Source: Perkinsus olseni
Lineage: Eukaryota
NCBI GenBank assembly: GCA_013115125.1
Contig: JABANN010000344.1
Location: 1 to 37,209, forward strand
DNA: 37,209 nucleotides
Direction: 5' to 3'
Notes under the pieces: generated by a model
Databases searched by the model: none
What the model was told of the DNA's origin: nothing
Seen by the model: the letters and a program-made list of their open reading frames with translations, nothing else
In this document: positions 15,970 to 37,209 of the stretch, in pieces
Layout of the letters: every line of letters starts with the position of its first letter
Numbering within the stretch: the stretch's first letter is position 1
Position numbers and translations under genes: made by a program

Positions 15970-18347
15970 ATGCTTCGACGTAACGTACGGCTGAGGAAGG
16001 AGTATCTGTACAAGAAGGCTTTGGAAGAGAAAGAACGTGAGCCGCTCGGTTGGATCGACTGCCTTGGTTTCGGAAGTTGGTTGTTGTCAGGAACGACTCT
16101 CGAGAAGAAACGGAAGCTCAGGGATGCCTTGGAGCAGAACAAGTCTGTGCCAACTGAGCTCAGAGGAGATACTAAGCTGAGGACGACGCTTGACTTGGAG
16201 GATGATAGAACCAAGGTCATATCATTGGTGGTCTTTCTGTCGTAGGCCGTTGTAGTCCGCTTCGCTAAAGAAGTAGCGTCTCGGCCGCCTCCTGCCGTAC
16301 TGATCACGAGACTCCTGATGAGAATCCACTCATCTCTTTGATTGAAACAGTTTACAGCAAACGCAACCGGCGCGATTGCTTACTCAGCTCCGGTCTTGGG
16401 TGGCGATAGGCTCGAGTAACCATGCGCTATGGTGATAGGAAACTCATCATCGTACCGCCCCTGCACAGGCCGGTGCTTCGATCCGTCCAGGGCATTGATT
16501 CTAGGACGGCATCCTTGTACCCGCCTCGGTCTCATCAACGGTGAATGCATTATGTGTGCCTTCAACAGTGGGATGCTCGCGAACTTGTTCAGTCCGACAC
16601 ACGTCAATGTTATCCAGCATAACACTTGTCAACTCTATAACTATAGTTGGCCACTTTGTATATAGCAATACGTGTCAGGTTTCTGTATAATGATGCTTAC
16701 CAAATTTTTATGTATCGATACTCATTTATTTTGCTGTGAAGTACGACATCTGTTGGTTTTGTATGGTCCGACGCTTGCTGACTCAGTCAAGCAAAGTTCC
16801 TCTTTTCCTTGACCTCAGCGTTTTCGTCCGAACGTGTTGATGCGGTTTGACTGCCGGTTGTAGGTTCAAAGACTGGCCATCGATGACGAGTATCAATACC
16901 TCGGAGTTCGAGAGCCGAGGGTGCTAGTTACCACTAGTCGTAACCCGAGTTCGAGGTAGTAGGCCGAATGGCGGGTCTGTAGTAGCTGATGATGGTGGAT
17001 TAGGTTGGGGAAGTTTGTGAAGGAAGTGAGGCTGCTGATACCGAATAGTCAGCGTATTAACCGGGGCACCTACGTCATGAAGGATCTGGTCGACTTATGT
17101 AGGAAAAATGACATCACCGATATGGTAAGAAATCGCCGCTGTAACAGTTTGCGTTCACTTTCACCTGCAGGTTATCGTTCATGAGCACAGAGGCCAGCCA
17201 GATGGTCTTATCGTATCCCATTTGCCTTATGGGCCAACGGCTTACTTTGGCCTGTCGGACGTGGTAATAATACAGGCTTTCACTACATTCCAGGACGTCT
17301 CCTCATGCCACCTACATCACTATCACTAATTCTACTACCGTTCCGATGATATCTACTTCTGCTGCCACTATCGCTGCTGTTTCTGTGATATCTACTTCTG
17401 CTGTCACTATCGCGGCTGTTTCTGTGATATCTACTTNNNNNNNNNNNNNNNNNNNNNNNNNNNNNNNNNNNNNNNNNNNNNNNNNNNNNNNNNNNNNNNN
17501 NNNNNNNNNNNNNNNNNNNNNNNNNNNNNNNNNNTGCCACTATCGCTGCTGTTTCTGTGATATCTACTTCTGCTGTCACTATCGCGGCTGTTTCTGTGAT
17601 ATCTACTTCTGCTGTCACTATCGCGGCTGTTTCTGTGATATCTACTTCTGCTGCCACTATCGCTGCTGTTTCTATGATATCTACTGCTGCTACTATTGTT
17701 ACTGTCCGGATATCTGTTCTCTGCTCAGGTCCTGCGGCACGATCTTCCTGAGAAGCCACCGAATATGCCAGAGACGTACCCTCATTTGATCTTCCACAAT
17801 TTCGGTGGAAATATCGGTACTAGGTCTGAGGTCGTCAGGCTTGCTTGATCGCTCTCTGGTAAGGTACGCGTGTACAGACTATCCTTTCGGCACTGTTCCC
17901 ACCTTCAAAGCCTGACAGTAAGTTGTCCTACGGCGGGATGGAACCCTCGCGGACGAGTGGTATGTGGGTTTCTCGTAGGTACACGAGCAATCACTTTTGC
18001 CAATGATGGTGGTGACTGCATCGGCTTCCGTCACCACACCTTCGAGAAGCCCACGAAGGCTACTAAGAATCGAGCTGATGTGAATGCCGATGACGTGAAG
18101 CTGTACGAGCAGGTAATATATCCTACTCGTAAAGGCGGTCCACAGAGAACTGCATTCAGGGTCCACGGTTCAACATGCAGCTGTATCGCCTCGAGCTCGG
18201 CACGTTAGATATGCCTGATGTCAAGACTGAATGGGTGCTCAGGCCCCACTTCAATAAACAGCGATCGGTAGGCCTGCTGGGCCCGGTGGGAGACTAAGAA
18301 GTCTTTTTCCGTAGATACTTGCAGGGCAGGCTGTGGTGGAGGAGTGA
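15970..18347 (+). CDS. IMP4: U3 snoRNP protein IMP4 (Brix domain), multi-exon
   Basis: [81 protein letters not shown] and [19 protein letters not shown] all join through GT-AG introns. Confidence 0.95.
17347..17700. repeat. 39-bp tandem minisatellite inside an IMP4 intron (17264-17728), interrupted by an N gap (17437-17534)
   Basis: Unit tgatatctacttctgctgYcactatcgcKgctgtttctg is repeated on both sides of the gap. Confidence 0.95.
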
Positions 18348-18810: not shown

Positions 18811-19857
18811 ATGCCACCGGAAAGCCCACTCGATGTAGTATCTTGGGCGGACCTGTAGTATAATAATCTGGTCCGCTTCAGGGAGGGTACGAGCAGCTCC
18901 ATTTGGATCCGTTGTTCCCTGTCTTCCCATCGTCCATCCATACCGAAGAAATGCCGGTGATGGAGAGCCCCGTCCCGGTGCCGCTATTTCCGAACCCTGA
19001 GTTGATCCATGAAGCGGCCCGACTCTCTAACGAGGTGGATTTAATAGCGCTCACCACTGCCGGAAATGGCGGCTCCAGTAGCACCAGCCCGCGGTCTCGT
19101 GCTAGCTCAAGCAGTAAGGGCTCGTCTAAGACGAGGAGAGCGTCGAACAATAAGGGGAAGTGTGCTTACCCGCTCGGATGCAACAAGTACAGACAGAATG
19201 GTGAGTCCATACGGAGCAGTCACGCCTCGTTGTTAGGCATAATTCAATTCAGGGACACGGTTTTGCGTGAAGCACGGTGGGGTGCGGCGATGTGCGGTGC
19301 CAGGGTGTCCCAATGCTGCTAAGCGCGGTGACACTACTAAGGCTGTGTAAGCGCTCTGGCTAGACTGTAGCACTTCCCTCTTGTTGCCGGAGTACCCATT
19401 GTCTAGGTTCTGCATTCGTCACGGCGGCGGCAAGTCCTGTCGTGTGCCGGGTTGTGGAGTGTCCGCCAGAGGCTCCACGGGCTACTGCTACAAGCACCGG
19501 AAGCTGACTACTGCGAGGTCTCGAAAAGATTCGACAGCCTCGACCGCGTCGGGCTCTGGGTCTGAGGAATCTCTGGTTGATCAAGGCCTCCAGCTCTGTA
19601 CAATGAGCCCATCGGCGCCCTGTGATGCTTCTGGGGTGGATCTTCAAGTGCCCGGTTTGACGGCTTCCCATTTGGACTACCCCTATTGGGGCAGCTCATC
19701 AGCAGCTGGAGAGGGCGATCCAAATCTGGCATCTCTCAATTTCCTTGGCGTAAGCGACGAGAAGTGGACTTCCTTCGTGAAGCCTATGGAGCCGCTGCCG
19801 GAGCTGCTCACGAACCATATCGACCCAGATGCCCCTGGAAAGCTCAATCTTTTTTAA
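18811..19857 (+). CDS. WRKY19-like C-x4-C...C-x2-HGG zinc-finger repeat protein (paralog A), spliced
   Basis: KCAYPLGCNKYRQNG|TRFCVKHGGVRRCAVPGC...|FCIRHGGGKSCRVPGCGVSARGSTGYCYKH. The start is uncertain and may extend upstream into the Q-rich frame. Confidence 0.8.
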
Positions 19858-20498
19858 TCGTTCACTCTGCTGTCGTCCAGGTCTCGGATCAGGTCGACTG
19901 GAGAGGAGTAGTTTGTAGTTCCTCCTCACTGTTCTTTGTAATTCAACAAGTAGTTCTTCGAGTCCACCTCTAACGTATCGTGCTACCTTCTCTTGCGTCC
20001 TCACAAGACGTCTCTTGCTTTTCATCTTCAACGAGAAGTTCAAGTACAGGCGGCTCGTGTCACCGTCCAATCAGTCGTTATCAAGGGAGGGTGTCCAACT
20101 CAGTGTATTTCTCGAGCTATCGTGACGACCTCTGGAGCGGTCAGCGCCTGTCCATTGCGCATTTGTTTTGAGCGCAATAAAGTTGACTACAAGATTGGCT
20201 GATATACGCACGAGCGCCTCCCGGTACACTTATAGCCTCCCATCTCAATTCCTGATTTCAGTAATGCTTCACCCACTCTGTCCACGATACGCTTCCACTA
20301 CCACGACTACCACTATAACTGTCCTGTCGTTTCGGCCCTGTCGCTAATTCATTGGGCCATCCATAAGTAACGCTGTGTCTCGTTCTATCGGCTATGTTGC
20401 GTTGCGGAGTTGATAGCTCGGGAGCTCCGCACAAACTCCGCACAAACTCGTCTTTTTTTTCAGTTTCGTACGGCTATTGGTGGCCGTTTGTCGTGTTC

Positions 20499-21233
20499 AT
20501 GGCCTTTGAGGTGGTAGGCCCGGCGAAAAAAGGGGCAGAGAAACGATGGCGCTGTGCATTCTCTGGAGGGTGTCAAAAGTATCGCCAGAATGGTGAGTTC
20601 CGCTCTCGACCTTAATCAGTCTAATAGATCATCGCCCGCGGTGGCTTAGGCACTCGATTTTGCGTGCGACACGGCGGAGCGCGAGCCTGCGGATTTCCAG
20701 GATGCACGGCTACATCGAGGAAAGGAGGTGAGGGAAAGTAAGTCCACCCAGGGAGGCGCTTTAAGAGCGTTATAATGAAGCTCCGGTATAGGAGCGCGGA
20801 GCGGACGCTGATACATCGCCTCAGATATTGCATACGTCATGGTGGTGGGAGACGCTGTACCTATCCTGGCTGCCATACCGCGGCGAGAGGAAGAACTGGT
20901 TTCTGCTATAGACACAAGAAATGCAGCAAATCGTCAAATGGAATCGATAGCAGTGCCATAGCCAGTTCCGGCGGCGCGGATTCTCTGATTGCTCGTTTGC
21001 TCCGCGACATCGACCAGCCCACCTCGTACGAGCCTTCGGAGTCCTCCAGTGAGACCACCGATATCACCGTGGATTCACCCACTGCCAGGCAATCGAAACA
21101 ACAACTACAACAACAACCACAACAACAGCAGCAATCGCAACTCTTTTCCTCTGCCGTTGATTTGTACGACCAGTGTTGCTTCTCTAGCAGTTCTGCTAGG
21201 GCTTCGGCGGTTCCCATGGTCTATCATTTATAG
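20499..21233 (+). CDS. WRKY19-like zinc-finger repeat protein (paralog B), spliced
   Basis: RCAFSGGCQKYRQNG|TRFCVRHGGARACGFPGC...|YCIRHGGGRRCTYPGCHTAARGRTGFCYRH. Introns fall at positions equivalent to paralog A; poly-Q tail. Confidence 0.82.
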
Positions 21234-21535: not shown

Positions 21536-21594
21536 AGATTCCATGCAGCGGTTACCCCTGGTAACTTACCAGGGGTAACCGCTGCATGGAATCT
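21536..21594. repeat. Perfect palindrome, 29-bp arms, 1-nt centre
   Basis: agattccatgcagcggttacccctggtaa-c-ttaccaggggtaaccgctgcatggaatct. Confidence 0.97.
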
Positions 21595-21777: not shown

Positions 21778-21824
21778 CAGGTGATACACCTATTCTTACT
21801 GAGTAAGAATAGGTGTATCACCTG
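21778..21824. repeat. Perfect palindrome, 23-bp arms, 1-nt centre
   Basis: caggtgatacacctattcttact-g-agtaagaataggtgtatcacctg. Confidence 0.97.
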
Positions 21825-22158: not shown

Positions 22159-24222
22159 CAGGAAATTTTCCTGCGGAAAACTATTCCTCTTATTTCATAG
22201 GAAGAAATTCTTCATAGGTTCGCATTCAATGCGATCCAAGTCACTGACCTCTAAACTGACTTGAAGCCAGCTCAGCAAGGTCGAGGACACTGCACCGAAG
22301 ACATTCAATGAGGAAACAACCGAACTCCTCATCAACGTGGTAGTGGGCCGTTCAGGCCCTGAACTTCAGGGCCATGGTTGCCAGGCTGAGCAGTTCCTGG
22401 CGGCAACTCCCATGAGCTCCTGCCACTCTCCCCGGCGGAGAAGGTGAGACTCCGAACTCTACTATATCACCTCACTTCCAGTGACAAACCAGAATACGTT
22501 ATACCCTCGCGTCGCCGAATCACTCGGTCAGACACATGCACCCAACCGAGTTGGGCTGTCAGTCGCAGCCGCTCTGTACTCGATAATCAGACGATGACTA
22601 CTCAGAGGTTCTGCTGCTCCAAATATATCTCAAGTCTCGAGAATCTCAAGAGTTGAGATTCAAGAGTATGACGTCAACAGTAGTTGACTCCGAAGGTCGT
22701 AGCCGCGTCAAAATCATTCCTGCGCTGATCCACGATGGCACCGTCAGTGTTGGCGCCAACTTGGCGCCTATGCCATGCGCGCTAAATCTATGGTATTACG
22801 GATCGATGAAGCGGTCGAATTACTCTGCTTTAAATATGCGAAAGCCGATACAGGCTTTTCATTGAAAAATTTAAAAGTTGGCCAAGCTCACGGGCAACGC
22901 TTGGGAAATTAATCCGACTGATACGTTCAACCGACCCGCACATGCGATTGGACAGGTTGGGCTTCGGCGTCAATATAGCTCCCAGTGTCCTTAGAAGGAT
23001 CATAACGCATATTCTTCGGAGGGCTCCGAGATGAGAAACATATCCGACCAATCGACGAAGTAGAGCTGGAAGCCGCATTAAGAGGCTCAGGGTGGCAAAT
23101 TTAGGGAAACATTGGGCGAAGCTTCCTTCTTTCCGAAATTCCATGGAAAATTCAAGCTAATCAAACGCCGCCGTGAGTTCGAGTTCCTCAAGCTCATGAA
23201 GCGACATTGTCGCTGCGACATAGCGAGCTGAGTCCCTCAAGTGCATCTCCGTCATCTTGATCTAACTAATCTTGTTACCCAGCTTGCTAGTAGCAAGTTG
23301 CTACGGTAGCCCAGTTATCAGCGGCTCGCTGCATTGAAGTAGCACACCGGTCCTGGATCAGCTGTCAGGATCGGCTAAGCCGATTCGGCTTCCGTATCCA
23401 CGGTTGTCAGGCTAAGCAGTTCCTGGCGGCAACTCCCATGAGCTCCTCATACCGAATCCCGCTCCCAGGGAGCGTTTAACGGTCGTTATTCGAAACCAAA
23501 CTCAATGCGAAAGCAAACTATGTCAGTCACGTCGACGACGTGTGAATCGGCTGCTGACAGCTACTTGGCGTGGAATCTACAGCGTGGATGTATCAAACGA
23601 GAGCTGAACTTTGTCAGCCAAGGTACGTAACACTCGTGCAGAAAGCAATAGCAGAAGCCGGCGTTTCCACTCGGGCAACCGACCTCGCAGGCTGCACGGA
23701 AATGCTGCAATTTACGAACATCCAGAAAAGGCTCACTGAGTCAGGGTTGAGCGAATAATTCCCGAGTTCAACTCGGCAGCTCGGCGAGCTGCCAGAGGGA
23801 AGAGCCCGTCGGGTGGCTGGTGAGAGTTGCAGTATGACAATGACAATTTGAGCGGAAAACGAGATGAATGTTGCAAATTGCATCCCGCAACGCGGACGCG
23901 TAACCGAGCAACCGAGCCTCGTTCGACTTCACCCGAGGTCGAAGCTGAAGTCGAAGCAGTTTTCGACTACTTATGACATGACTTCGCGTAGATGCGGTGT
24001 CCCCTGACTCAACTTGGATTGAGTCTCGTGAACATGCCGTGGTGAATGTCATTCAGTGAATGGCTAGTACTCCACTTTGAATAATAGTAGAGACCATTGC
24101 TAGACGCCGCTGTGCGCGGCGGTCACAGCGGCGCTAGGCACATGCATCGCACACGATGCATCGGTCCGATGCCATCGGAGCTAACAGGTCTTAGTAACTT
24201 AGACTAAGTTAGACCGTCTAAC
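22159..24222. mobile_element. Cluster 1 of putative hAT-type excision footprints (T1-7 + rc(T) + T2-8)
   Basis: Perfect at 22350-22371, 23283-23304, 23370-23391 and 24158-24179. One mismatch at 22159-22180 and 23200-23221. Compound at 23762-23791, nested at 24187-24222. The sequence pattern is clear; the transposon origin is inferred. Confidence 0.8.
22372..23447 (+). repeat. 50-bp direct repeat (22372-22421 and 23398-23447), 3 mismatches
   Basis: ccaYggttgYcaggctRagcagttcctggcggcaactcccatgagctcct occurs twice, 1026 bp apart. Confidence 0.9.
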
Positions 24223-28120: not shown

Positions 28121-29221
28121 CAGTGCGAGAAACATGCTGCGAGAAGTTATGATCATGTTGCTGTTGTGATGTTGTTCTGAACCGACATCTGTGAGTGATG
28201 TGTCGGAGTACTCAGTGTTCTGAGTGTCAGTACCACCCAGCGAATACCCGCAGAGGAGCGCTGCCGGTAAGAGGACCCTTTGGATCTCCTTGAGGCCAGC
28301 GGACGATCTGCCGATGTGACTCAGGTTGCTCAGACTCTGAGTACTTAGTCGCTGGGCTGTACTCTGAGTATCTGAGTAGTTAGTTGCATTACCGTAGTAA
28401 CCTACTTTGAACCGCTGAACCTTGCCCAAAGGGAAAGCTTATCGGCTTCGAAGTGCCTTGACGTCAAAGGATAACCACCGAAGTGCCTGCGCGTTTATAC
28501 CACGATATCGCTCCCTAGTAGACACCCTCTCTGTGAGGAACTCGCCCCTCATTACGCAAGTGCGATACTGCCACAGTATGCCATCTCAGCTGAGTTTCAT
28601 CTTGATATAATAATCATCAAACCCGAGTATCTTCGGGTCCTGGAGCTGGTGGACCAGCCAGCCGATGCCTTGCTACAAAACCCTTGTGAGGTTCTATCTG
28701 TCGCGAAGGTTCAGCCACCCGGGCTCGAGCGGTTAGCGACTGTTACACATGCAGAAAGGCTCAGCGGCGGCGCCGAGCGAACGCGCTCTTATTACCTGCC
28801 GAGTCGGCAGGTAATAGTCGGCAGTGCCGACTATGTGAGTCGGCTATGTATGCCGCAGCTATGTGAGTCGGCAGTGCCGACTCACTAACACAACTACCTT
28901 GCAAGTCGCAGGTATTACTTAGCGACAAGTAGAGATGAGATGAGAGAGATCGAAGAGCGAAGAGATACTTATCGAAAGGGATTTGTTTTAGCACCGTGAA
29001 ACTTCCACTAGAGACTTTGCCCCAGTCGAAGTTCACCAGCTGAACTACCTATGCTTATTATACCTGTTACAGATGACGTATATAGCACTCCGGTAGAATG
29101 TATCGAACAATGAGCTTTCTGCCCTCGCAGGTTGCAGGAGCCTTCACTTGAGTAGCGAGCAGTGGGCACTATGTGAAGAGCACACAGGGTACATGACCTT
29201 CTGAATCGTATCACAGACTCT

Positions 29222-29633
29222 TCAGCAGTTCCCATTCTTCAGGACGTACACTTCGCAGTCACCTCGAGGTTCGAGGATTATGACATCAGGCCCAGGGAAG
29301 TAAGCCACACGCTGCCAAAACTGGGGATATAAGGAATACGCTTTGGCAAAGTTTGTGAACTGCTCGGACGACACATCGACCTCGATACGATGGTCTGCGA
29401 AGCCTAGGATGGGAATGCCGTCGGCACGGACCTGTGTGTCACCCGTCAAAGTGAGAATAGTCATGGTGCCTTCCGACTCGGAAGGCACCTCTCGGAAGTT
29501 CCGAGAAACCGAGCGCCCAATCGTACCCGCGCGCCTCTCTACACGGAGTACAGTAGTGCTCACTGCGAGGAGTGAAGGCCTCGGTGCTCCTAACTGCGAG
29601 GGCCACCAGGCAGAAGATAGCGGTGCTTATCAT
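29222..29633 (-). CDS. Small, probably secreted hypothetical protein (signal-peptide exon plus second exon)
   Basis: Signal-like MISTAIFCLVALAVRSTEA, a GTGAG donor-like site, then another open frame ...GTMTILTLTGDTQVRADG...DVIILEPRGDCEVYVLKNGNC*. Splice junction not fixed. Confidence 0.55.
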
Positions 29634-31126
29634 AGATCTTTCGGTAACTCTGACAAAAGCCTAACAAGGTAGCGTGTCTTGAGGCATTGAAACTGGCCCT
29701 CACTAAAGTTGAGGATTCGCTCCAAATCAAACTAAGCGCGAAAGTGAGGAGCGTTGACGGGCAGGTCACAGCGGTGCAGCTTACAGGGTTCTAGGCACGG
29801 AATAGCTCAATGGATTGCTGTAGGGCACAACTTGTGCCGCACAAGCTGCGCCCATCTGACGGGAACGGGCAACCAGGGATTGGGGCCTCTGCACACTGTT
29901 TGACTTTTACGGCGAGGCCTCTCAGCGGTGATAGCCCCCCAACTTGGCTGTCTCGGGAATCCCGAGTCGGGATCCCCTCTCTTCAGCGAACTACTGCTGA
30001 TAACGCTGGTCCTTTTTGCCTTTACGTCTGTTGAAGGAGACACATTATGGCGATCAAGGCTTGAGCGTAGCTCATATGTGCATGCGTCGAAAGCTCTGCG
30101 GGCGTGTCTTAGCTGCAGGTCGAGTCTTCCCAGTGCCAACTCGAGGGCGTCATTGACTGCAAAGTTACTAGAAAATTAGAGAGATACTAAGTATGATTAG
30201 GATATCATCAGGCAAGTCATACTCATAGTTTCATGTTTCGGGAGTAATCCGCAGCTGCAGTACGTGATGCGTACTACGCATATCCATAGCTCAGTCCGCT
30301 ATGTCCCTGCCTGCAGCGGAGCGGTCGTCAGCATATTCATGAAAAGTAGGCTTCAATTAGGAGCCCTTCTTAAAGAGTGCTGTGCGCAGCACCAACCTTA
30401 GGGGACAGACTTTTTGTGTTATTTGGGGAGAGGAGCCTTTTTAGGCGCAGTTTCAGCCTCGAAATATGCCAAAACCCCAGAATCTGGAGCCCATATTCTA
30501 GAGTCCACAAGATCCTCGACAAGCTACCTTCGGAACATCGTTGTCCGGACTAACGCCGACATCGTCGGGCGCAGCCCAACATTTAGGAAACGGAAGTGAC
30601 TCAATCTCGGCTCAGCCGGCAGTGTACTTACGTGACGTAAGTATATGTAAGCACGTAAGTATAGATAACTTACCTAAGGTAAGTTACGTACCTCACGGGG
30701 TAGTCATTGCATGCGGTCGCATTGGTGCCGAGTCGGCACTGCCGACTATCCCACTCGCCGAGTGGCACCAAGCGTATTTCACGCTAGCATTGTCACCCCG
30801 CATTCGGGAGTACCGCAGCGGGGCATGAAGTGTAGAGATTGTCCCTATATTGCACAGTGATTGTCTCATATTATAAGTTTTTGCTGCGTGACACAGCCTG
30901 TGTCGTTCATACCGTGACGCTAGAGCGCATTACTCAGATGCTATTGTTATTTTAGCTCGTGCAAAACCCGCGACCTTTGCTCATACGGAGTGCTTTGGGT
31001 TCGCGTGGGGTTTAACTTACTACGAAGTGCGGAGACAATTCCGGAAAAGTTGTTTCGGCATCTCTGGTATACCGCCAAGTCCGTCGCGGTAAACCGGCGG
31101 GCATTCCGGAGATTATGTATCACACG

Positions 31127-32338
31127 GTGACAAACTCAACATTCTGGAGATGATTGGTTCATCAGCTTTAAAAGCTGTGCTACAACTCCCTCTTAAATCC
31201 AGAATCTGAATAGCATCTTCCTCATACGTAAGAGGCGAAATAATGGGTCGGGGAGATATGCTGACTCTAAAAACTGTGGAACGCTCCCGTGTCCTTCATG
31301 AACAGTTCAAGAGACATCTCGAGCGGCCTCCCGGATTGAGTAGGGAGAACCAGAGGCTCTGGTCCAGAGCTGCTGTCGTTGTCTGTAATCTCGGCTTCGA
31401 AGCCCTGAAGAGAGGATAATACCACTCTCGAAGAATCAATCCACGGAACGCGTCTGTGTACTTCTGATACTCTAGGGGGGACTAGAGTTGAGTCTGTCGG
31501 ACTGCGTACGACCACGTCGGGACTGGTTGGACGGGGAGTGGGTGGTGATGTAGACCTCAAACACGTCCACGGCCACGAGAACGAGGATCTTCTTTTAACC
31601 TGCTCGTAATCCCGTGACACCCGTTCTAAGCCGAACATGTGAAGAAAGGATCTTATTCCTGCTCACTGTCCGGTTATGTAGAGACTGGACGGCCAGAGCA
31701 CTCATATGCTCTCTTCTCATGTTCTGCAAGGATTTCCTCCTGTCATTCCATTCCCTGTTGTCGCACCACAGCTGACGAATTGTTTGTAAATTCTCGTCGT
31801 AGAGCTTCTGACGATGCTGACAATAGAGAGCTCGATATTCAGTTGAAGGAGTAGATAATGGCAGTGACAACAATCACAACGGGAAGCTGCGCCCGCATGA
31901 ACGAGGAAATCTGTACGGACGTTTGGGTCCTCACCTTAATTTCTCTGGAATGCATTCTCTCAAGTCTTTCTTGCTCCTCAGCGCACTTCCGCAGCTTCTG
32001 TTCCAGCAGTCTCGCGTATTCTTTGAGACCTTCGTAGTCTTCACGCGGCACAGTCATGTTAAGCTGTAAAAATCTGCGGAATATGGGTCTTCCCTACTAT
32101 TGTTATGACTCAACACCCAATGAGTTGCTGAATATTCGTGGTATGCAGCATATAGACTCAATTAAGCTGAGACGCCATTCAAGGCAGCACCGGGAGTGAT
32201 GCTGCCTTCAGGGCCACTTTACACTCTCGAGGCCTCTTACTACGTCTATCATCAGAGAGGCTCTGGTAGAGGATTTCGTGATAGCTGAACAGAACGAGGC
32301 CCGACTTCGTGACCTGCAGAGGGCTCCTGAGTCGTTTC
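31127..32338 (+). repeat. 1.2-kb segmental duplication, copy 1
   Basis: Colinear with 35942-37138. The offset is 4815 at the left end and 4800 at the right, explained by indels of 14, 3, 1 and 1 nt. Confidence 0.97.
31267..32057 (-). CDS. Hypothetical spliced coiled-coil protein, copy 1
   Basis: MTVPREDYEGLKEYARLLEQKLRKCAEEQERLERMHSREIK|HRQKLYDENL... with GTGAG donors. The phase of the 3' exons is uncertain; may be a pseudogene. Confidence 0.55.
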
Positions 32339-34103
32339 TGAGTGTCATTGACGGTGAAACGTTGATGGAGATCATTGCTGTTACCTGTGCTTCCGGGCGA
32401 CTCTTGCACCATCTGTTTCAAAGACTATCCGCCCTTCGGGCCCCACGGCTACTTCTGAGAAGTGACATCTCGTGATGAGAATCTCATCCTCGTTACACGC
32501 TGTCACGTTCAACACCGTATGGTCTATTCACGCCGGCAGTTGTACAGAATTGATCTCCGGGACTGTTATCCAATCATTGTCAGCATGTTAGTACAATAGC
32601 GACTTCATCAATCCATAATTCTCCTGAGATTATCTTCGGTCACATTGCGATAATCGCCGATATCTGCATAACCGTGGTTGCTGAGCAGTTATGGGCAAAA
32701 TTCGAAGTTCGAGGGGTGTGACCCCAATTAGCACTGCTAATTTAGCAGCCTTGAAGGTTGCTTGTTGAACCTTCATGTTGTCAATGAGAGCTTATCATAG
32801 TTTGAGCTTCTCCAAACGCAAAGCTCCTATACCCCAATAGTTTTCCCAGCCGACTGCGAGAGGAACGCTCCGTGAGCGGCTCACGGTGAGCCTCAAGTCG
32901 TGACACCTGCGTTTGAAAGCAAAACTTGTGACACGTAGTACGGGAGCATATTGAAGATGCCCCCTTCTATATCCTCAACCATTATATTAACAACACCACT
33001 ATCAAGAGCTTTCGAAATTCCTCATAACGTTTCATGCCGGCCACAACCATCGACTGAAGATGCTCCAAAATCCCGTACTGTTGTCTCGGGCTCTCCTCTT
33101 GTACCTATATCTTCAACGTACAAGATTCAGAATTGTAGGGGTCTGAATGTGTTGTTAGCGGTATGTTACCGCCGGTAACCAAGGGTTAACGGTGAGAACG
33201 GACGCATCCAAGACTTGGTTTCCAAGTATGTCGAGTGAATTAAACTTAAATGCGACGTGTGAATTTCGCACGCTTGGTGGTGAGAATCATGAGAGTGAGA
33301 CGGGTCTCGGGGCCCTCGTCTGAGGAGCACGGGTCCGACTCGGACCCTGAGTAGACTCAAAGGTTGCCCCAAAGGGTCATTAGGGTTACAAGCAATTACA
33401 AATCGCGAGCTTGCCATTACGATAATATCTTCGCTCGACTCGCATTCGCAATCGTGCCCTCAATCGTATTCCGGGCCGGAATATGCACGCAGTAATAAAA
33501 TTCGGGTTTGGCATACTTAGGATTTCAGCAAGGATTTCTCACTGGTAATTCAGAATAGGCTACAATCGCACTCTCGGGTCAAGACTCTTGACTCAAGAGT
33601 CTCGCCGCCACCTTCGTCAAGCTTGCACGAGAGGAGGTGTAACCGTTACACTGCGATGAGTAAAACACTGTGAAACTGTCAGAAATGTTGGAAAATTTTC
33701 TGTCAATTCTTGTAACAAAACTATGGACGTTCGAACATTCCACCCTCTGACTTCTTGAGCTTCCTCGTCAATTCATCAATTTCGGTTTTTGCCCTGGCCA
33801 GCTCGAGTGCCTGAGAAGGCCCAAGAGTCCATCGCGTGGAGACTTTCACGATCGAAAAGTGACTTTTCAAAAGTCGCTCAGTGCAAGGGCGGCCCTTGAA
33901 GGGTCCCTTGCCAAGGGGTAAAGATTAGCGACTACTTGTGCGGCACAAGTTGTGCCGAGTAGCGGTTCCGGAGTGTACTATACTGCTTCTCGAGCGCTTG
34001 CGCATCACTGGTCCATAATCCACCACCAACCTGCAATGGGGCAAGATTCTGCACAAGACCTACCGGACTCATGAATTATGATGATTGTCCAACCCTAACT
34101 GTG

Positions 34104-34310
34104 TCACACACAAACCATGAGTGGCACCTTAGCTACCCATGGAATTTCGGACGCGACTTCAACTGCCATCTCAGACGCCTTCCGGGCTGTCATCTCGAGC
34201 GCCATCTCAGTCGTCATCTCAGTCGCCATCTCAGTCGCTATTTTATTCATAAGTCTGTCGCGGGCTTGCTCGACTTCCCGCCTCCGCACCATCTCTTTTG
34301 CCATGAGCAA
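34104..34310 (-). pseudogene. Gene remnant with 12-bp repeats (ATEM/TTEM/ALEM)
   Basis: Plus strand shows gtcgccatctca-type 12-mers repeated about 34165-34218. The minus-strand frame is helical-looking but has no clear start. Confidence 0.35.
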
Positions 34311-35544
34311 ACGGAGCTGTCTCTCTGTAGCAGATGTCTGGTCGGCGCCCTACCCAGGACGCACCGACTCATGATGTACGACAAAAAGTTGCCGGCAATC
34401 CATCTAGCATAAACTTTGCTGATGGTCCTACTGTAGGACCATCAGCAAAGTTCCTACATCCGGTCTTGATTTGAGCAGGCCACACAGGCGATAGGTTCTC
34501 GAACGCCCCTGAAGCGAGAAAAGATTAACTCGCAGCTGGTACGCCTTCGTGATAGTGATCTCTGGCCCACCGAAAATTCCGGTGCGCCTAGTTATTCCCG
34601 GCTGCAAAACGTTCCTGGTTGATGCTCATCGTTTGGAGCAGGCAACAATGGGAAAGTGAGAGAAGAGGAATATCCCTTCAGCTTACCTCCGATGACGTCG
34701 CGGCATGATGGTATCTTTGTAGGTCCATTTGAAACCCGAATGAGTCTTTAGTCAAGGCCAAAGACTTGATCACCCGACAAGAGTGGCCCCACCAATTCTG
34801 ACTGTGGGGTCGAGCTGTTGGCTAGTGACAAACTCAACGTGGTCCTAAGCACTAGCCGGGTTGGTTTAACCCAAAAATTCCGGGCCGAAATACTTCGCTA
34901 CACGAAGTAACCCCTCACAGCTGAGCACACCGACATCCACTTATGAAAGATAACGTTTCGACGCTGCAACATAGCGTCCCTGACCACCATTTCAGCTCCG
35001 GTACCCTGACGAGAGAATACTGCGACACTCGGGGAGTCCGAAAGTGAGTTTCTCCATCTCTGGTGAGCTCGGTGGGTTTAGAGTTCAGTGAGAAGAACTG
35101 AGCCCGAGCACATCAGAGCTGGTTGGACGGGATTCTGGTCCACGGGAATATCGGAAACACCAGCTATCCCCCGCTAATAGTGCTCAATTAATGACGCAAT
35201 TCCCCATGAGTTGCTGACTATTGTTCTGTCATTGCTCACAACACGATCATCAGTATGTAGGACCGGAGCCGCCGGAGTCCGGCGGAACGTAACTACTGAC
35301 AACAATAGACCGAGCATGACTGAGATTTATCTAGAGGAGCCTTGGTCAGATGAGTCCGCTAGCCTCTAACGCACAGCATCCCTTCGGCTAAGGATAGGCC
35401 CCCGAAAAGAGCAAGACTTCCGTGGTCTCCCGACAATTAACGCACGACGCGGAAGCGGTTTGAATCTAAGGGCTGCTCTAAGAACGAGACACCGGTTCCA
35501 CGATTAATCGAAGATTTTTTGGACTTCGGATTTCGAAAATGCGT

Positions 35545-35730
35545 TCAGCGGCTCACCTGCTTCACCCTGAACAGCTCAGGCAACCCAGCCTTGAAATTTT
35601 TCAGGTCAATCTCAACACCGTTGATCCCAAACAGGACACGATCGCAAAGCTTCGTCATGAACTTCGTGACACGAAGTCGATCCCCCCAAGAAAACCAGGA
35701 ATCGGCAGGTAGCAATCGGTACTGTAGCAA
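35545..35730 (-). pseudogene. Isolated exon-like segment of an unknown gene
   Basis: CAG|YRLLPADSWFSWGDRLRV...ELFRVKQ|GTGAG, bounded by canonical splice sites. Confidence 0.35.
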
Positions 35731-35847
35731 TCGGTGAAGTGTACATATCTTTGTGGATTCCTCTACCTATGCTCATGTTGTCCTCCTCCTGGTGCGTTGT
35801 CGCGCAGCACGACTCAGGCTCATCAGCCTTGGGTTAGGAGACTAAAA

Positions 35848-35928
35848 TCTAGCCGCTAAAGTGTGTAATAATTACTAATTAATAATTAGCTAGCCCCTAG
35901 ATGATTATTACACACCTTAGCGGCTAGA
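35848..35928. repeat. Inverted repeat, 25-bp arms (1 mismatch), 31-bp AT-rich spacer
   Basis: tctagccgctaaagtgtgtaataat ... attattacacaccttagcggctaga; the spacer contains ctaatta-a-taattag. Confidence 0.92.
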
Positions 35929-35941
35929 GCTATGTTACCTC

Positions 35942-37138
35942 GTGACAAACTCAACATTCTGGAGATGATTGGCTCATCAGCTTTAAAAGCTGTGCTACAG
36001 CTCCCTCTTAAATCCAGAATCTGAATGACATCTTCCTCATACGTAAGAGGCGAAATAATGGGTCGGGGAGATATGCTAACTCTAAAAACTGTGGAACGCT
36101 CCCGAGTCCTTCATGGACAGCTCAGGAGACATCTCGAGCGGCCTCCGGGATTGAGTAGGACGAACCAGAGCTGCTGTCGTTGTCCGTAATCTCGGCTTCG
36201 AAGCCCTGAAGAGAGGATAATACCACTCTCGAAGAATCAATCCTCGGAACGCGTCTGTGTACTTCTGATACTCTAGGGGGGACTAGAGTTGAGTCGGTCG
36301 GACTGCGTACGACCACATCGGGACTGGTTGGACCGGAAGTTGGTGACGTAGACCTCAAACACGTCCACAGCCACGAGAACGAGGATTTTCTTTTAACCTG
36401 ATCAGTGATCCCGTGACACCCGTTCTAACCCGAACGTATGAAGAAAAGGATCTTATTCCTGCTCACCGTTCTGGTATTCTGAATTGAGGCGATTAGCCCC
36501 CGCCATTGCTGTCTGAGGCGTAGCCAAGAACTGTTCAACTTCTCTTCCCGCTGACTCTCATCGTACAAGAGTCGACGAAGCTTTTTTAAGTCCTCGTCGT
36601 ACAGCTTCTGACGATGCTGACAATAGAGAGCTCGGTATTCAGTTAAAGGAGTAGATAATGGCAGTGACAACAATCACAACGGGACGCTGCGCCGGCATGA
36701 ACGAGGAAATCTGTACGGAGGTTTGGGTCCTCACCCTCATTTCTCTGGAATGCATTCTCTCAAGTCTTTCTTGCTCCTCAGCGCACTTCCGCAGCTTCTG
36801 TTCCAGCAGTCTCGCGTATTCTTTGAGACCTTCGTAGTCTTCACGCGGCACAGTCATGTTAAGCTGTAAAAATCTGCGGAATATGGGTCTTCCCTACTAT
36901 TGTTATGACTCAACACCCAATGAGTTGCTGAATATTCGTGGTATGCAGCATATAGACTCAATTAAGCTGAGACGCCATTCAAGGCAGCACCGGGAGTGAT
37001 GCTGCCTTCAGGGCCACTTTACACTCTCGAGGCCTCTTACTACGTCTATCATCAGAGAGGCTCTGGTAGAGGATTTCGTGATAGCTGAACAGAACGAGGC
37101 CCGACTTCGTGACCTGCAGAGGGCTCCTGAGTCGTTTC
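35942..37138 (+). repeat. 1.2-kb segmental duplication, copy 2
   Basis: Matches 31127-32338; both copies begin gtgacaaactcaacattctgg and end gggctcctgagtcgtttc. Confidence 0.97.
36082..36857 (-). CDS. Hypothetical spliced coiled-coil protein, copy 2
   Basis: Near-identical exon 1 (MTVPREDY...) and a strongly diverged exon 2. The stop is at 36082 or 36122 depending on splice phase. Confidence 0.55.
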
Positions 37139-37209
37139 CAAAGTCGCCCTGGCTTCGTCAGTCCATATGACGTGACTGAAGTCACGTTTCATATTATCGC
37201 GGGCCCACT

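Follow-up and report, generated by a model that had tools for sequence, protein, structure and literature searches.

A probable transposon excision footprint in one copy of a duplicated Perkinsus olseni gene, and many scars of the same build around it

The last exon of one copy of a duplicated gene in Perkinsus olseni carries a 22-bp sequence that stands in the other copy as a plain 8-bp site. We consider the longer form to be, with a probability of about 0.7, the excision footprint of a cut-and-paste transposon, which arose in that copy after the duplication and rewrote the tail of the encoded protein; that the element was of the hAT type in particular is held somewhat less firmly. The gene pair lies in contig JABANN010000344.1 of assembly GCA_013115125.1, of which positions 1 to 37,209 of the forward strand were analyzed and are referred to here as the window. 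The same process has acted dozens of times on the 17 kb around the gene, most of it non-coding, and continues to yield differences between isolates. A single scar of this kind is a textbook phenomenon; we have not found its uniform 22-bp product, its density, or its turnover between isolates described.

The two duplicated segments, copy 1 at 31127-32338 (the gene and its 5' flank) and copy 2 at 35942-37138, both on the minus strand, are 91.0% identical over 1223 columns by self-BLAST, and in their pairwise alignment the sole gap at the scar site is exactly 14 nt. Copy 2 has a single intact target, ACCAGAGC, at 36164-36171 (in context gaACCAGAGCtgctg), where an RNA contig described below is identical to it. 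Copy 1, in otherwise matching surroundings, reads ACCAGAG, GCTCTGGT and CCAGAGC in succession at 31349-31370 (in context gaACCAGAGGCTCTGGTCCAGAGCtgctg), a net gain of 14 nt. A first-pass annotation, made from the letters of the window, had pointed out this pair of sites, and its coordinates, letters, and 14-nt arithmetic were all correct when checked against the sequence and the alignment. Contigs of four runs (X3, X7, X8, and X9) were compared over 30000-37209, and in one of them, the independent run X3, a contig matches the window letter for letter over 31233-31414, including the 22-mer, which is therefore no assembly error.

The gene structure comes from a 630-nt contig of X9, a run guessed to be RNA, which is identical to copy 2 and omits 36205-36261, 36396-36464, and 36617-36734. 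Because all three omitted segments bear GT..AG ends on the minus strand, this contig is spliced RNA and fixes a four-exon minus-strand model for copy 2, with exon 1 and the 5'-untranslated region at 36735-36875 (ATG at 36855-36857), exon 2 at 36465-36616, exon 3 at 36262-36395, and the last exon, in its RNA-covered extent, at 36002-36204 (stop TGA at 36122-36124). All three introns retain their ends when transferred to copy 1, for which homology gives the coding part of exon 1 at 31935-32057 (ATG at 32055-32057), a variable exon 2 at 31665-31816, exon 3 at 31461-31597 (ends ambiguous by 1-2 nt), and the coding part of the last exon at 31267-31404 (stop TAG at 31267-31269), all on the minus strand.

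The 8-mer of copy 2 and the 22-mer of copy 1 thus occupy the coding part of the last exon, and the additional 14 nt shift the reading frame. The copy 2 product of 163 residues ends in ...ITDNDSSSG-SSYSIPEAARDVS, and the predicted copy 1 product of 182 residues in ...ITDNDSSSG-PEPLVLPTQSGRPLEMSLELFMKDTGAFHSF, its last exon encoding GFEAEITDNDSSSG followed by 31 frameshifted residues; the ancestral tail pattern ...SSSG-S[PS]YSI.EAARDVS has been turned into ...SSSG-PEPLVLPTQSGRPLEMSLELFMKDTGAFHSF. The proposal in the first-pass annotation of a frame-shifting indel in the last exon is upheld by this splice-supported model, and its suggestion that RNA be used to set the splice phase is answered for copy 2 by the X9 contig. 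It had left open whether the C-terminus was rewritten or broken; the predicted translation swaps 13 residues for 31 without truncating the protein, so that the C-terminus is rewritten rather than demonstrably broken. X9 has no contig over 31205-31927 of copy 1 and is uninformative on its expression.

For the frame across the site, one relative of similar length was found among 5.8 billion proteins, the P. olseni hypothetical protein P0001. A further protein, P0008, annotated in two P. olseni assemblies, is 100% identical to the copy 1 last exon, including the scar-derived tail, and its exons 1 and 2 agree, compared by eye, with the predicted copy 1 protein. All further matches were likewise P. 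olseni proteins, which places the window in this species or in something closely allied to it. The C-termini of P0002, P0003, and P0004 are in the un-inserted frame and follow the pattern ...SSG[ST]PYSI[PL]EAARDV(S): P0003 ends in ...SSSGTPYSIPEAARDVS, P0002 continues to ...SSSGSPYSIPEAARDV and then splices differently, and P0004 ends in ...RSSGSPYSILEAARDVS. P0004 joins this un-inserted end to the copy 1 type of the very divergent exon 2 and is accordingly read as the counterpart of copy 1 in another assembly. In addition, a 374-nt contig of X7 and X8 covering 31280-31666 lacks the 14 nt. Twelve letters distinguish it from copy 1, nine of them listed (six as in copy 2 and three private), and it retains the GGG of copy 1 at 31540-31542, so that the X7/X8 allele is copy-1-like or a mosaic.

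Since copy 2, these three proteins, and the X7/X8 contigs all show the un-inserted state, the sequence comparison supports the plain 8-mer as the older form and the 22-mer as derived in copy 1 after the duplication. The un-inserted frame can still be read downstream of the site in copy 1, as SPYSIREAARDVS followed by a stop, which argues that the event was recent. Among 1.84 billion representative sequences, the distant relatives are only P. olseni proteins that share the N-terminal coiled-coil part, none of them serving as an outgroup for the C-terminus. An alignment of relatives had been set beforehand as the check on polarity, with the 22-mer in all outgroup copies as the refuting result; the comparison gave the opposite, the plain 8-mer state. 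The earlier proposal of insertion and excision in copy 1 after duplication therefore agrees with both the polarity and the build of the scar, though no element was seen. Separately, in the X7/X8 contigs the left flank of copy 1 runs directly into the beginning of copy 2 (31125/35938), so that 4812 nt are skipped, the short side being covered by 34 letters. The junction reflects either the mapping of a copy-2-like allele to the beginning of the repeat or a haplotype in which the two gene copies are fused into one.

Two side observations concern the exons of this gene. The exon 2 copies (31665-31816 and 36465-36616) are only 57% identical, whereas their flanks are 92-100% identical, and across P. 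olseni assemblies one exon 2 type is found in P0004, P0008, and P0009 and the other in P0001, P0002, and P0003, with P0001 combining a copy-2-type exon 2 with a copy-1-like exon 3. As a reading of sequence, this pattern suggests old variable cassettes that may have been shuffled through gene conversion. Exon 3 (36262-36395 in copy 2, 31461-31597 in copy 1) is present in the spliced X9 contig and skipped by the models of P0002, P0003, P0004, and P0008; as annotated, these proteins probably lack 45-46 residues.

For a target N1..N8, the scar consists of N1-N7, the reverse complement of N1-N8, and N2-N8, i.e. 7 + 8 + 7 letters. This arrangement contains two overlapping palindromes whose single-letter centers, G and T at the copy 1 site, are the complements of the target ends C (N8) and A (N1), and the same rule for the centers holds at three sites where the 8-mer is independently known. 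With 14 letters constrained, about 1.4e-4 sites of this build are expected in 37 kb; the window holds 13 perfect 22-mers, against 0 in 100 Markov shuffles. The excess persists as mismatches are allowed, with 19 observed against a shuffle mean of 0.02 at up to one mismatch, 31 against 0.15 at up to two, and 46 against 1.94 at up to three. When the target size was varied over k = 5-15 and the loss per side over 0-3 letters, the sole enriched build was k = 8 with a loss of one letter per side (13 hits); other builds of k of at least 7 gave 0-1 and k = 9 gave none, so that there is no 9-bp class.

Apart from the copy 1 site, the scan for this build located perfect scars at 22350-22371 (target GTTCAGGG), 23283-23304 (CTTGCTAC), 23370-23391 (ATCGGCTT), 24158-24179 (GCATCGGA), 29824-29845 (GGCACAAG), 29952-29973 (CTCGGGAT), 30725-30746 (GTGCCGAC), 32727-32748 (ATTAGCAG), 32871-32892 (CGTGAGCC), 33578-33599 (GTCAAGAG), 33854-33875 (GAAAAGTC), and 33935-33956 (CTTGTGCC); at the sites of GTGCCGAC, CGTGAGCC, GTCAAGAG, and CTTGTGCC, 14 nt are missing from the contigs of X7 and X8.

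Counts of individual palindromes give the same picture. The window has 63 with a 1-nt center and arms of at least 7 nt, where 20 shuffles average 3.0, while 0-, 2-, and 4-nt centers yield two each, the chance level. In the 1-nt-center class there is a sharp maximum at an arm length of 7, with 37 cases; at this length 0- and 2-nt centers have 2 and 1. Taking 13 pairs and 37 single palindromes, we estimate about 50 events, or roughly one per 0.35 kb over 17 kb. An A adjoins the center in 30 of the 63 (p = 9e-5) and a T lies six letters outward in 31 (p = 3e-5); with the outermost target letters mostly G or C, the preferred target is S-T-n-n-n-n-A-S, which contains nTnnnnAn. Three palindromes of this class are long, a 59-nt one at 21536-21594 with 29-nt arms, a 47-nt one at 21778-21824 with perfect 23-nt arms, and a 41-nt one at 34412-34452 with 20-nt arms. 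The last of these is 26 nt shorter in X7/X8 and is read as a scar of the same kind with a longer unfolded hairpin, and all three fit the model set out below with longer unfolding. Three marks of a hAT excision footprint, namely an origin in an 8-bp duplication, complement-centered palindromes, and the nTnnnnAn preference, are present.

A sequence of steps that could produce the scar starts from an element with 8-bp target duplications, hairpin-capped flanks, and the chemistry of hAT elements such as Ac/Ds and Hermes. Its insertion into the last exon of copy 1 would have duplicated the 8 bp of its target, ACCAGAGC. Excision would then seal each flank as a hairpin, one strand ending one base before the element and being joined to the complement of the outermost target base; for Hermes, the first nick is reportedly offset by one base (attributed to Zhou et al., 2004). 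If both hairpins unfolded by at least 8 nt, the left flank would end in a 3' tail with the reverse complement of N1-N8 and the right flank in one with N1-N8. The two tails could pair precisely along the 8 duplicated bp, the longest microhomology to hand, and annealing there, with flap removal and fill-in, would give N1-N7, the reverse complement of N1-N8, and N2-N8, i.e. 3 x 8 - 2 = 22 bp and a gain of 14 nt. We infer that unfolding and annealing are the simplest route to the exact 22-mer.

One other source was considered for the inserted letters. The 12-mer AGAGGCTCTGGT, identical to the core of the 22-mer, occurs at 32256-32267 and 37056-37067, about 200 nt upstream of both start codons, and has four matches at up to one mismatch against 0.24 expected, probably by chance plus duplication. 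As a template for the insertion it was dropped because the 22-mer's own target accounts for all of it.

The run contigs show the 14-nt difference repeatedly. Among the 12 of 25 indel places that are listed, nine are exactly 14 nt and one, at the 41-nt palindrome, is 26 nt. At six places (30483, 30726, 31350, 32872, 33579, and 33936) the additional 14 nt are in the window and missing in X7 and/or X8, five of these being perfect 22-mers and one a 22-mer with two mismatches. At three listed sites the reverse holds, X7 and X8 having 14 nt that the window does not, and the plain 8-mers TTGTCAAT, CCATGAGT, and GTCAAGGC become the same build. Substitution places over the compared region number 141 for X7 and 150 for X8. 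Scars therefore make up a large part of the isolate differences, and they have arisen in both lineages. An apparent back-joint in X3 (30747/30731) proved to be a mapping effect, a contig from 28833-28865 having aligned through a shared 19-nt palindrome.

Along the window, 62 of the 63 palindromes lie beyond 21.2 kb. Of the scars at up to one mismatch, 15 of 19 are outside any frame of 100 amino acids, and the site at 31349-31370 is the sole scar shown to lie within an expressed coding exon. Clusters of 1-nt-center palindromes with arms of 8-13 nt occur at 28790-28885, 29465-29506, and 30725-30765; they reuse a near-identical target (GTCGGCAC / CTGCCGAC) and contain a 19-nt string that recurs at three places, and may be repeated hits on a favored target that each scar recreates.

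Several observations count against a transposon footprint. A search of the window for pairs of identical 8-mers 40-6000 bp apart that enclose inverted ends returned 0 candidates, and the segments skipped by X7/X8 (34786-34973, 35404-35600, 30137-30298, and 30168-30277; 188, 197, 162, and 110 nt) have neither inverted ends nor 8-bp duplications. Pfam found no transposase domain in the 10 largest of 25 frames of at least 150 amino acids. The first 19 kb contain no 1-nt-center palindrome with arms of at least 7 nt; positions without a frame of at least 100 amino acids make up 25% of the first half of the window and 55% of the second, so that coding density accounts for the scar-poor first half in part only. 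About 50 events in 17 kb is, to our knowledge, far above the densities of transposon footprints elsewhere. The arms here are nearly always 7 nt and the product is a near-uniform 22 bp that uses the whole duplication, whereas Ds footprints are varied (PMC5873905). Finally, Dada and Merlin-related elements are the only ones named for Perkinsus marinus in the papers found (PMC8101967 for the latter).

Other searches were likewise negative. No occupied allele with inverted ends and an 8-bp duplication was present in the window or the four runs, and there is no obvious element end at the copy boundaries 32338 and 37138. The literature search, which did not extend to supplements and any repeat tables in them, turned up no account of palindromic scars, of footprints, or of hAT elements for Perkinsus. 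The same 10 frames matched amino-acid transporters, F-box, RNA methyltransferase, bystin, aspartyl protease, and WRKY19-type zinc fingers in Pfam. The zinc-finger frames at 18.9-21.2 kb were considered as a transposase, and on reading they resemble ordinary DNA-binding proteins.

A cut-and-paste scar left by another superfamily with 8-9-bp duplications (Mutator-like, Merlin, or P) in place of hAT is an unlikely source that nonetheless has some backing. The Mutator-like element (MULE) Muta1 also forms flank hairpins and makes 8-9-bp duplications (PMC5499845), Merlin-related frames exist in P. marinus and Merlin duplications are 8-9 bp (PMC8101967), and the literature null for hAT elements in Perkinsus points the same way. 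For Muta1, however, the measured hairpin is 43 + 43 nt and more than 90% of excisions are precise (PMC5499845), and the nTnnnnAn bias and palindromes centered on the complement of the adjacent base are described for hAT elements (PMC10368747, PMC5873905). The lack of any hit at k = 9 also speaks against these superfamilies. P-element footprints retain element ends, and no such retained ends were seen here.

The breaks might also be made without any element, by a host enzyme such as a domesticated transposase or by a break-repair route that produces 8-bp staggered, hairpin-ended breaks at nTnnnnAn and repairs them to the 22-mer. Consistent with this are the failure to detect an element or transposase in the window (with the 10 largest frames scanned), the very high density, the uniform product, and the strongly regional distribution of events. 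The triple build nevertheless requires that identical 8-bp stretches flank the break, i.e. a target duplication, the normal product of integration, and one locally hopping element would likewise leave many scars and no element. We know of no element-free process of this kind. Because density and uniformity go beyond those of Ds footprints, we retain an element-free process of identical geometry as a serious, albeit rather improbable, rival.

We regard a replication template switch of the quasi-palindrome type, in which the nascent strand copies the opposite strand across the 8-mer and switches back, as very improbable. Leaving after N7, copying N8' to N1', and resuming at N2 would give the exact string, and template-switch events are said to create inverted repeats (a finding attributed to Loytynoja and Goldman, 2017). 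Such a switch offers no reason for exactly 8 nt each time, when only k = 8 is enriched, nor for the nTnnnnAn preference, and the local sequence is nearly devoid of priming homology. The reading in which an ancestral 22-mer was shortened by 14 nt in all other copies, through slippage between the CCAGAG repeats, is barely credible, because, even though 6-nt direct repeats 14 nt apart around a hairpin are a classic deletion substrate with exact reversion, it needs independent identical deletions in copy 2, the X7/X8 alleles, P0002, P0003, and P0004 against one insertion, is contradicted by the family members examined, whose conserved C-terminus is the un-inserted one, and leaves the origin of the 22-mer unexplained.

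The excision footprint of a cut-and-paste transposon therefore remains our preferred explanation of the 22-mer. A wider proposal, to which we give slightly less than even odds, is that P. olseni harbors a very active, hitherto undescribed hit-and-run process, due to a hAT-like family or a transposase serving the host, that converts 8-mers of the form nTnnnnAn into triple-target scars with a uniform length of 22 bp. Such scars would form a leading class of indels between isolates (10 of the 12 indels listed in 7.2 kb), and the process would be regionally clustered, build longer palindromes, and occasionally rewrite gene ends, as in copy 1.

Some further features of the window deserve mention. 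Shortly before the start of the scar-rich region, at 18867-21233 on the plus strand, two neighboring sets of frames with WRKY19-type zinc-finger motifs (CxxxGCxKxxQxxG..., CxxHGGGxxC...) resemble a tandem pair of DNA-binding protein genes. At 30000-30481 and 36989-37209 the summed contig depth of X3 is about 10 times the local level, and a large number of contigs continue into other sequence at 30107, 30158, 30350, and 37137; dispersed repeat families lie here, on the borders of the scar-rich region. An assembly gap (N run at 17437-17534) is flanked by a tandem repeat at 17347-17691 whose period is 39 nt and which, in one frame, can be read as a repetitive peptide.

The copy 1 site offers a clear comparison, provided by nature, of the states before and after a transposon footprint gave a protein a new tail, and two assemblies already have this tail publicly annotated, as P0008. 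Transposon footprints tend to be scarce, variable, and difficult to recognize; here there is one exact 22-bp signature, which makes it possible to count past transposition at single-base level, to date it by means of substitutions, and to compare it among isolates of this mollusc parasite. If the pattern is genome-wide, it points to a cut-and-paste element or transposase-derived enzyme undescribed in perkinsids and an unusual repair of hairpin ends, with unfolding and annealing over the whole target duplication, and it would supply simple presence/absence markers for isolate typing.

Among known systems, Ac/Ds is closely similar. In plants and yeasts its footprints comprise deletions and palindromic insertions centered on the complement of the transposon-adjacent base, which result from resolution of flank hairpins; the arms reach 20 nt in budding yeast, microhomology is frequent, and in Candida 128 Ds excisions left 28 different footprints, most of which had gained 0-3 letters (PMC5873905). 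The likeness extends to complement-centered palindromic insertions, flank hairpins, microhomology-guided joining, and 8-bp duplications (PMC5873905). Besides the uniformity already weighed, the P. olseni scars differ in that no element is seen and in their density of about one event per 0.35 kb over 17 kb. Hermes, which has 8-bp duplications and the target preference 5'-nTnnnnAn-3' (PMC10368747), and hobo share the duplication size and the motif, T at position 2 and A at position 7 being found here in about half of the sites. They differ in that G/C is also favored here at positions 1 and 8, and that no inverted ends or transposase were found in the window.

Hairpins on flanking DNA are formed by hAT, Transib, MULE, and RAG alike, and the P nucleotides at RAG-made V(D)J coding joints resemble the scars in their hairpin-sealed ends, off-center opening, and short palindromic additions (both from PMC5499845). 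P additions are, by contrast, short and variable and involve no target duplication, and hence no triple build. The duplications made by RAG and Transib are of 5 bp. For Mutator-like elements, the size of 8 bp falls within their 8-10-bp duplications; no 9-bp class is present here, and neither the symmetric hairpin of Muta1 nor its mostly precise excision would lead one to expect odd palindromes. Template-switch mutations are alike in that an inverted copy of adjacent sequence is made in one step, and they have neither a fixed length nor a target motif, whereas the P. olseni scars show a constant length of 8 and a target bias.

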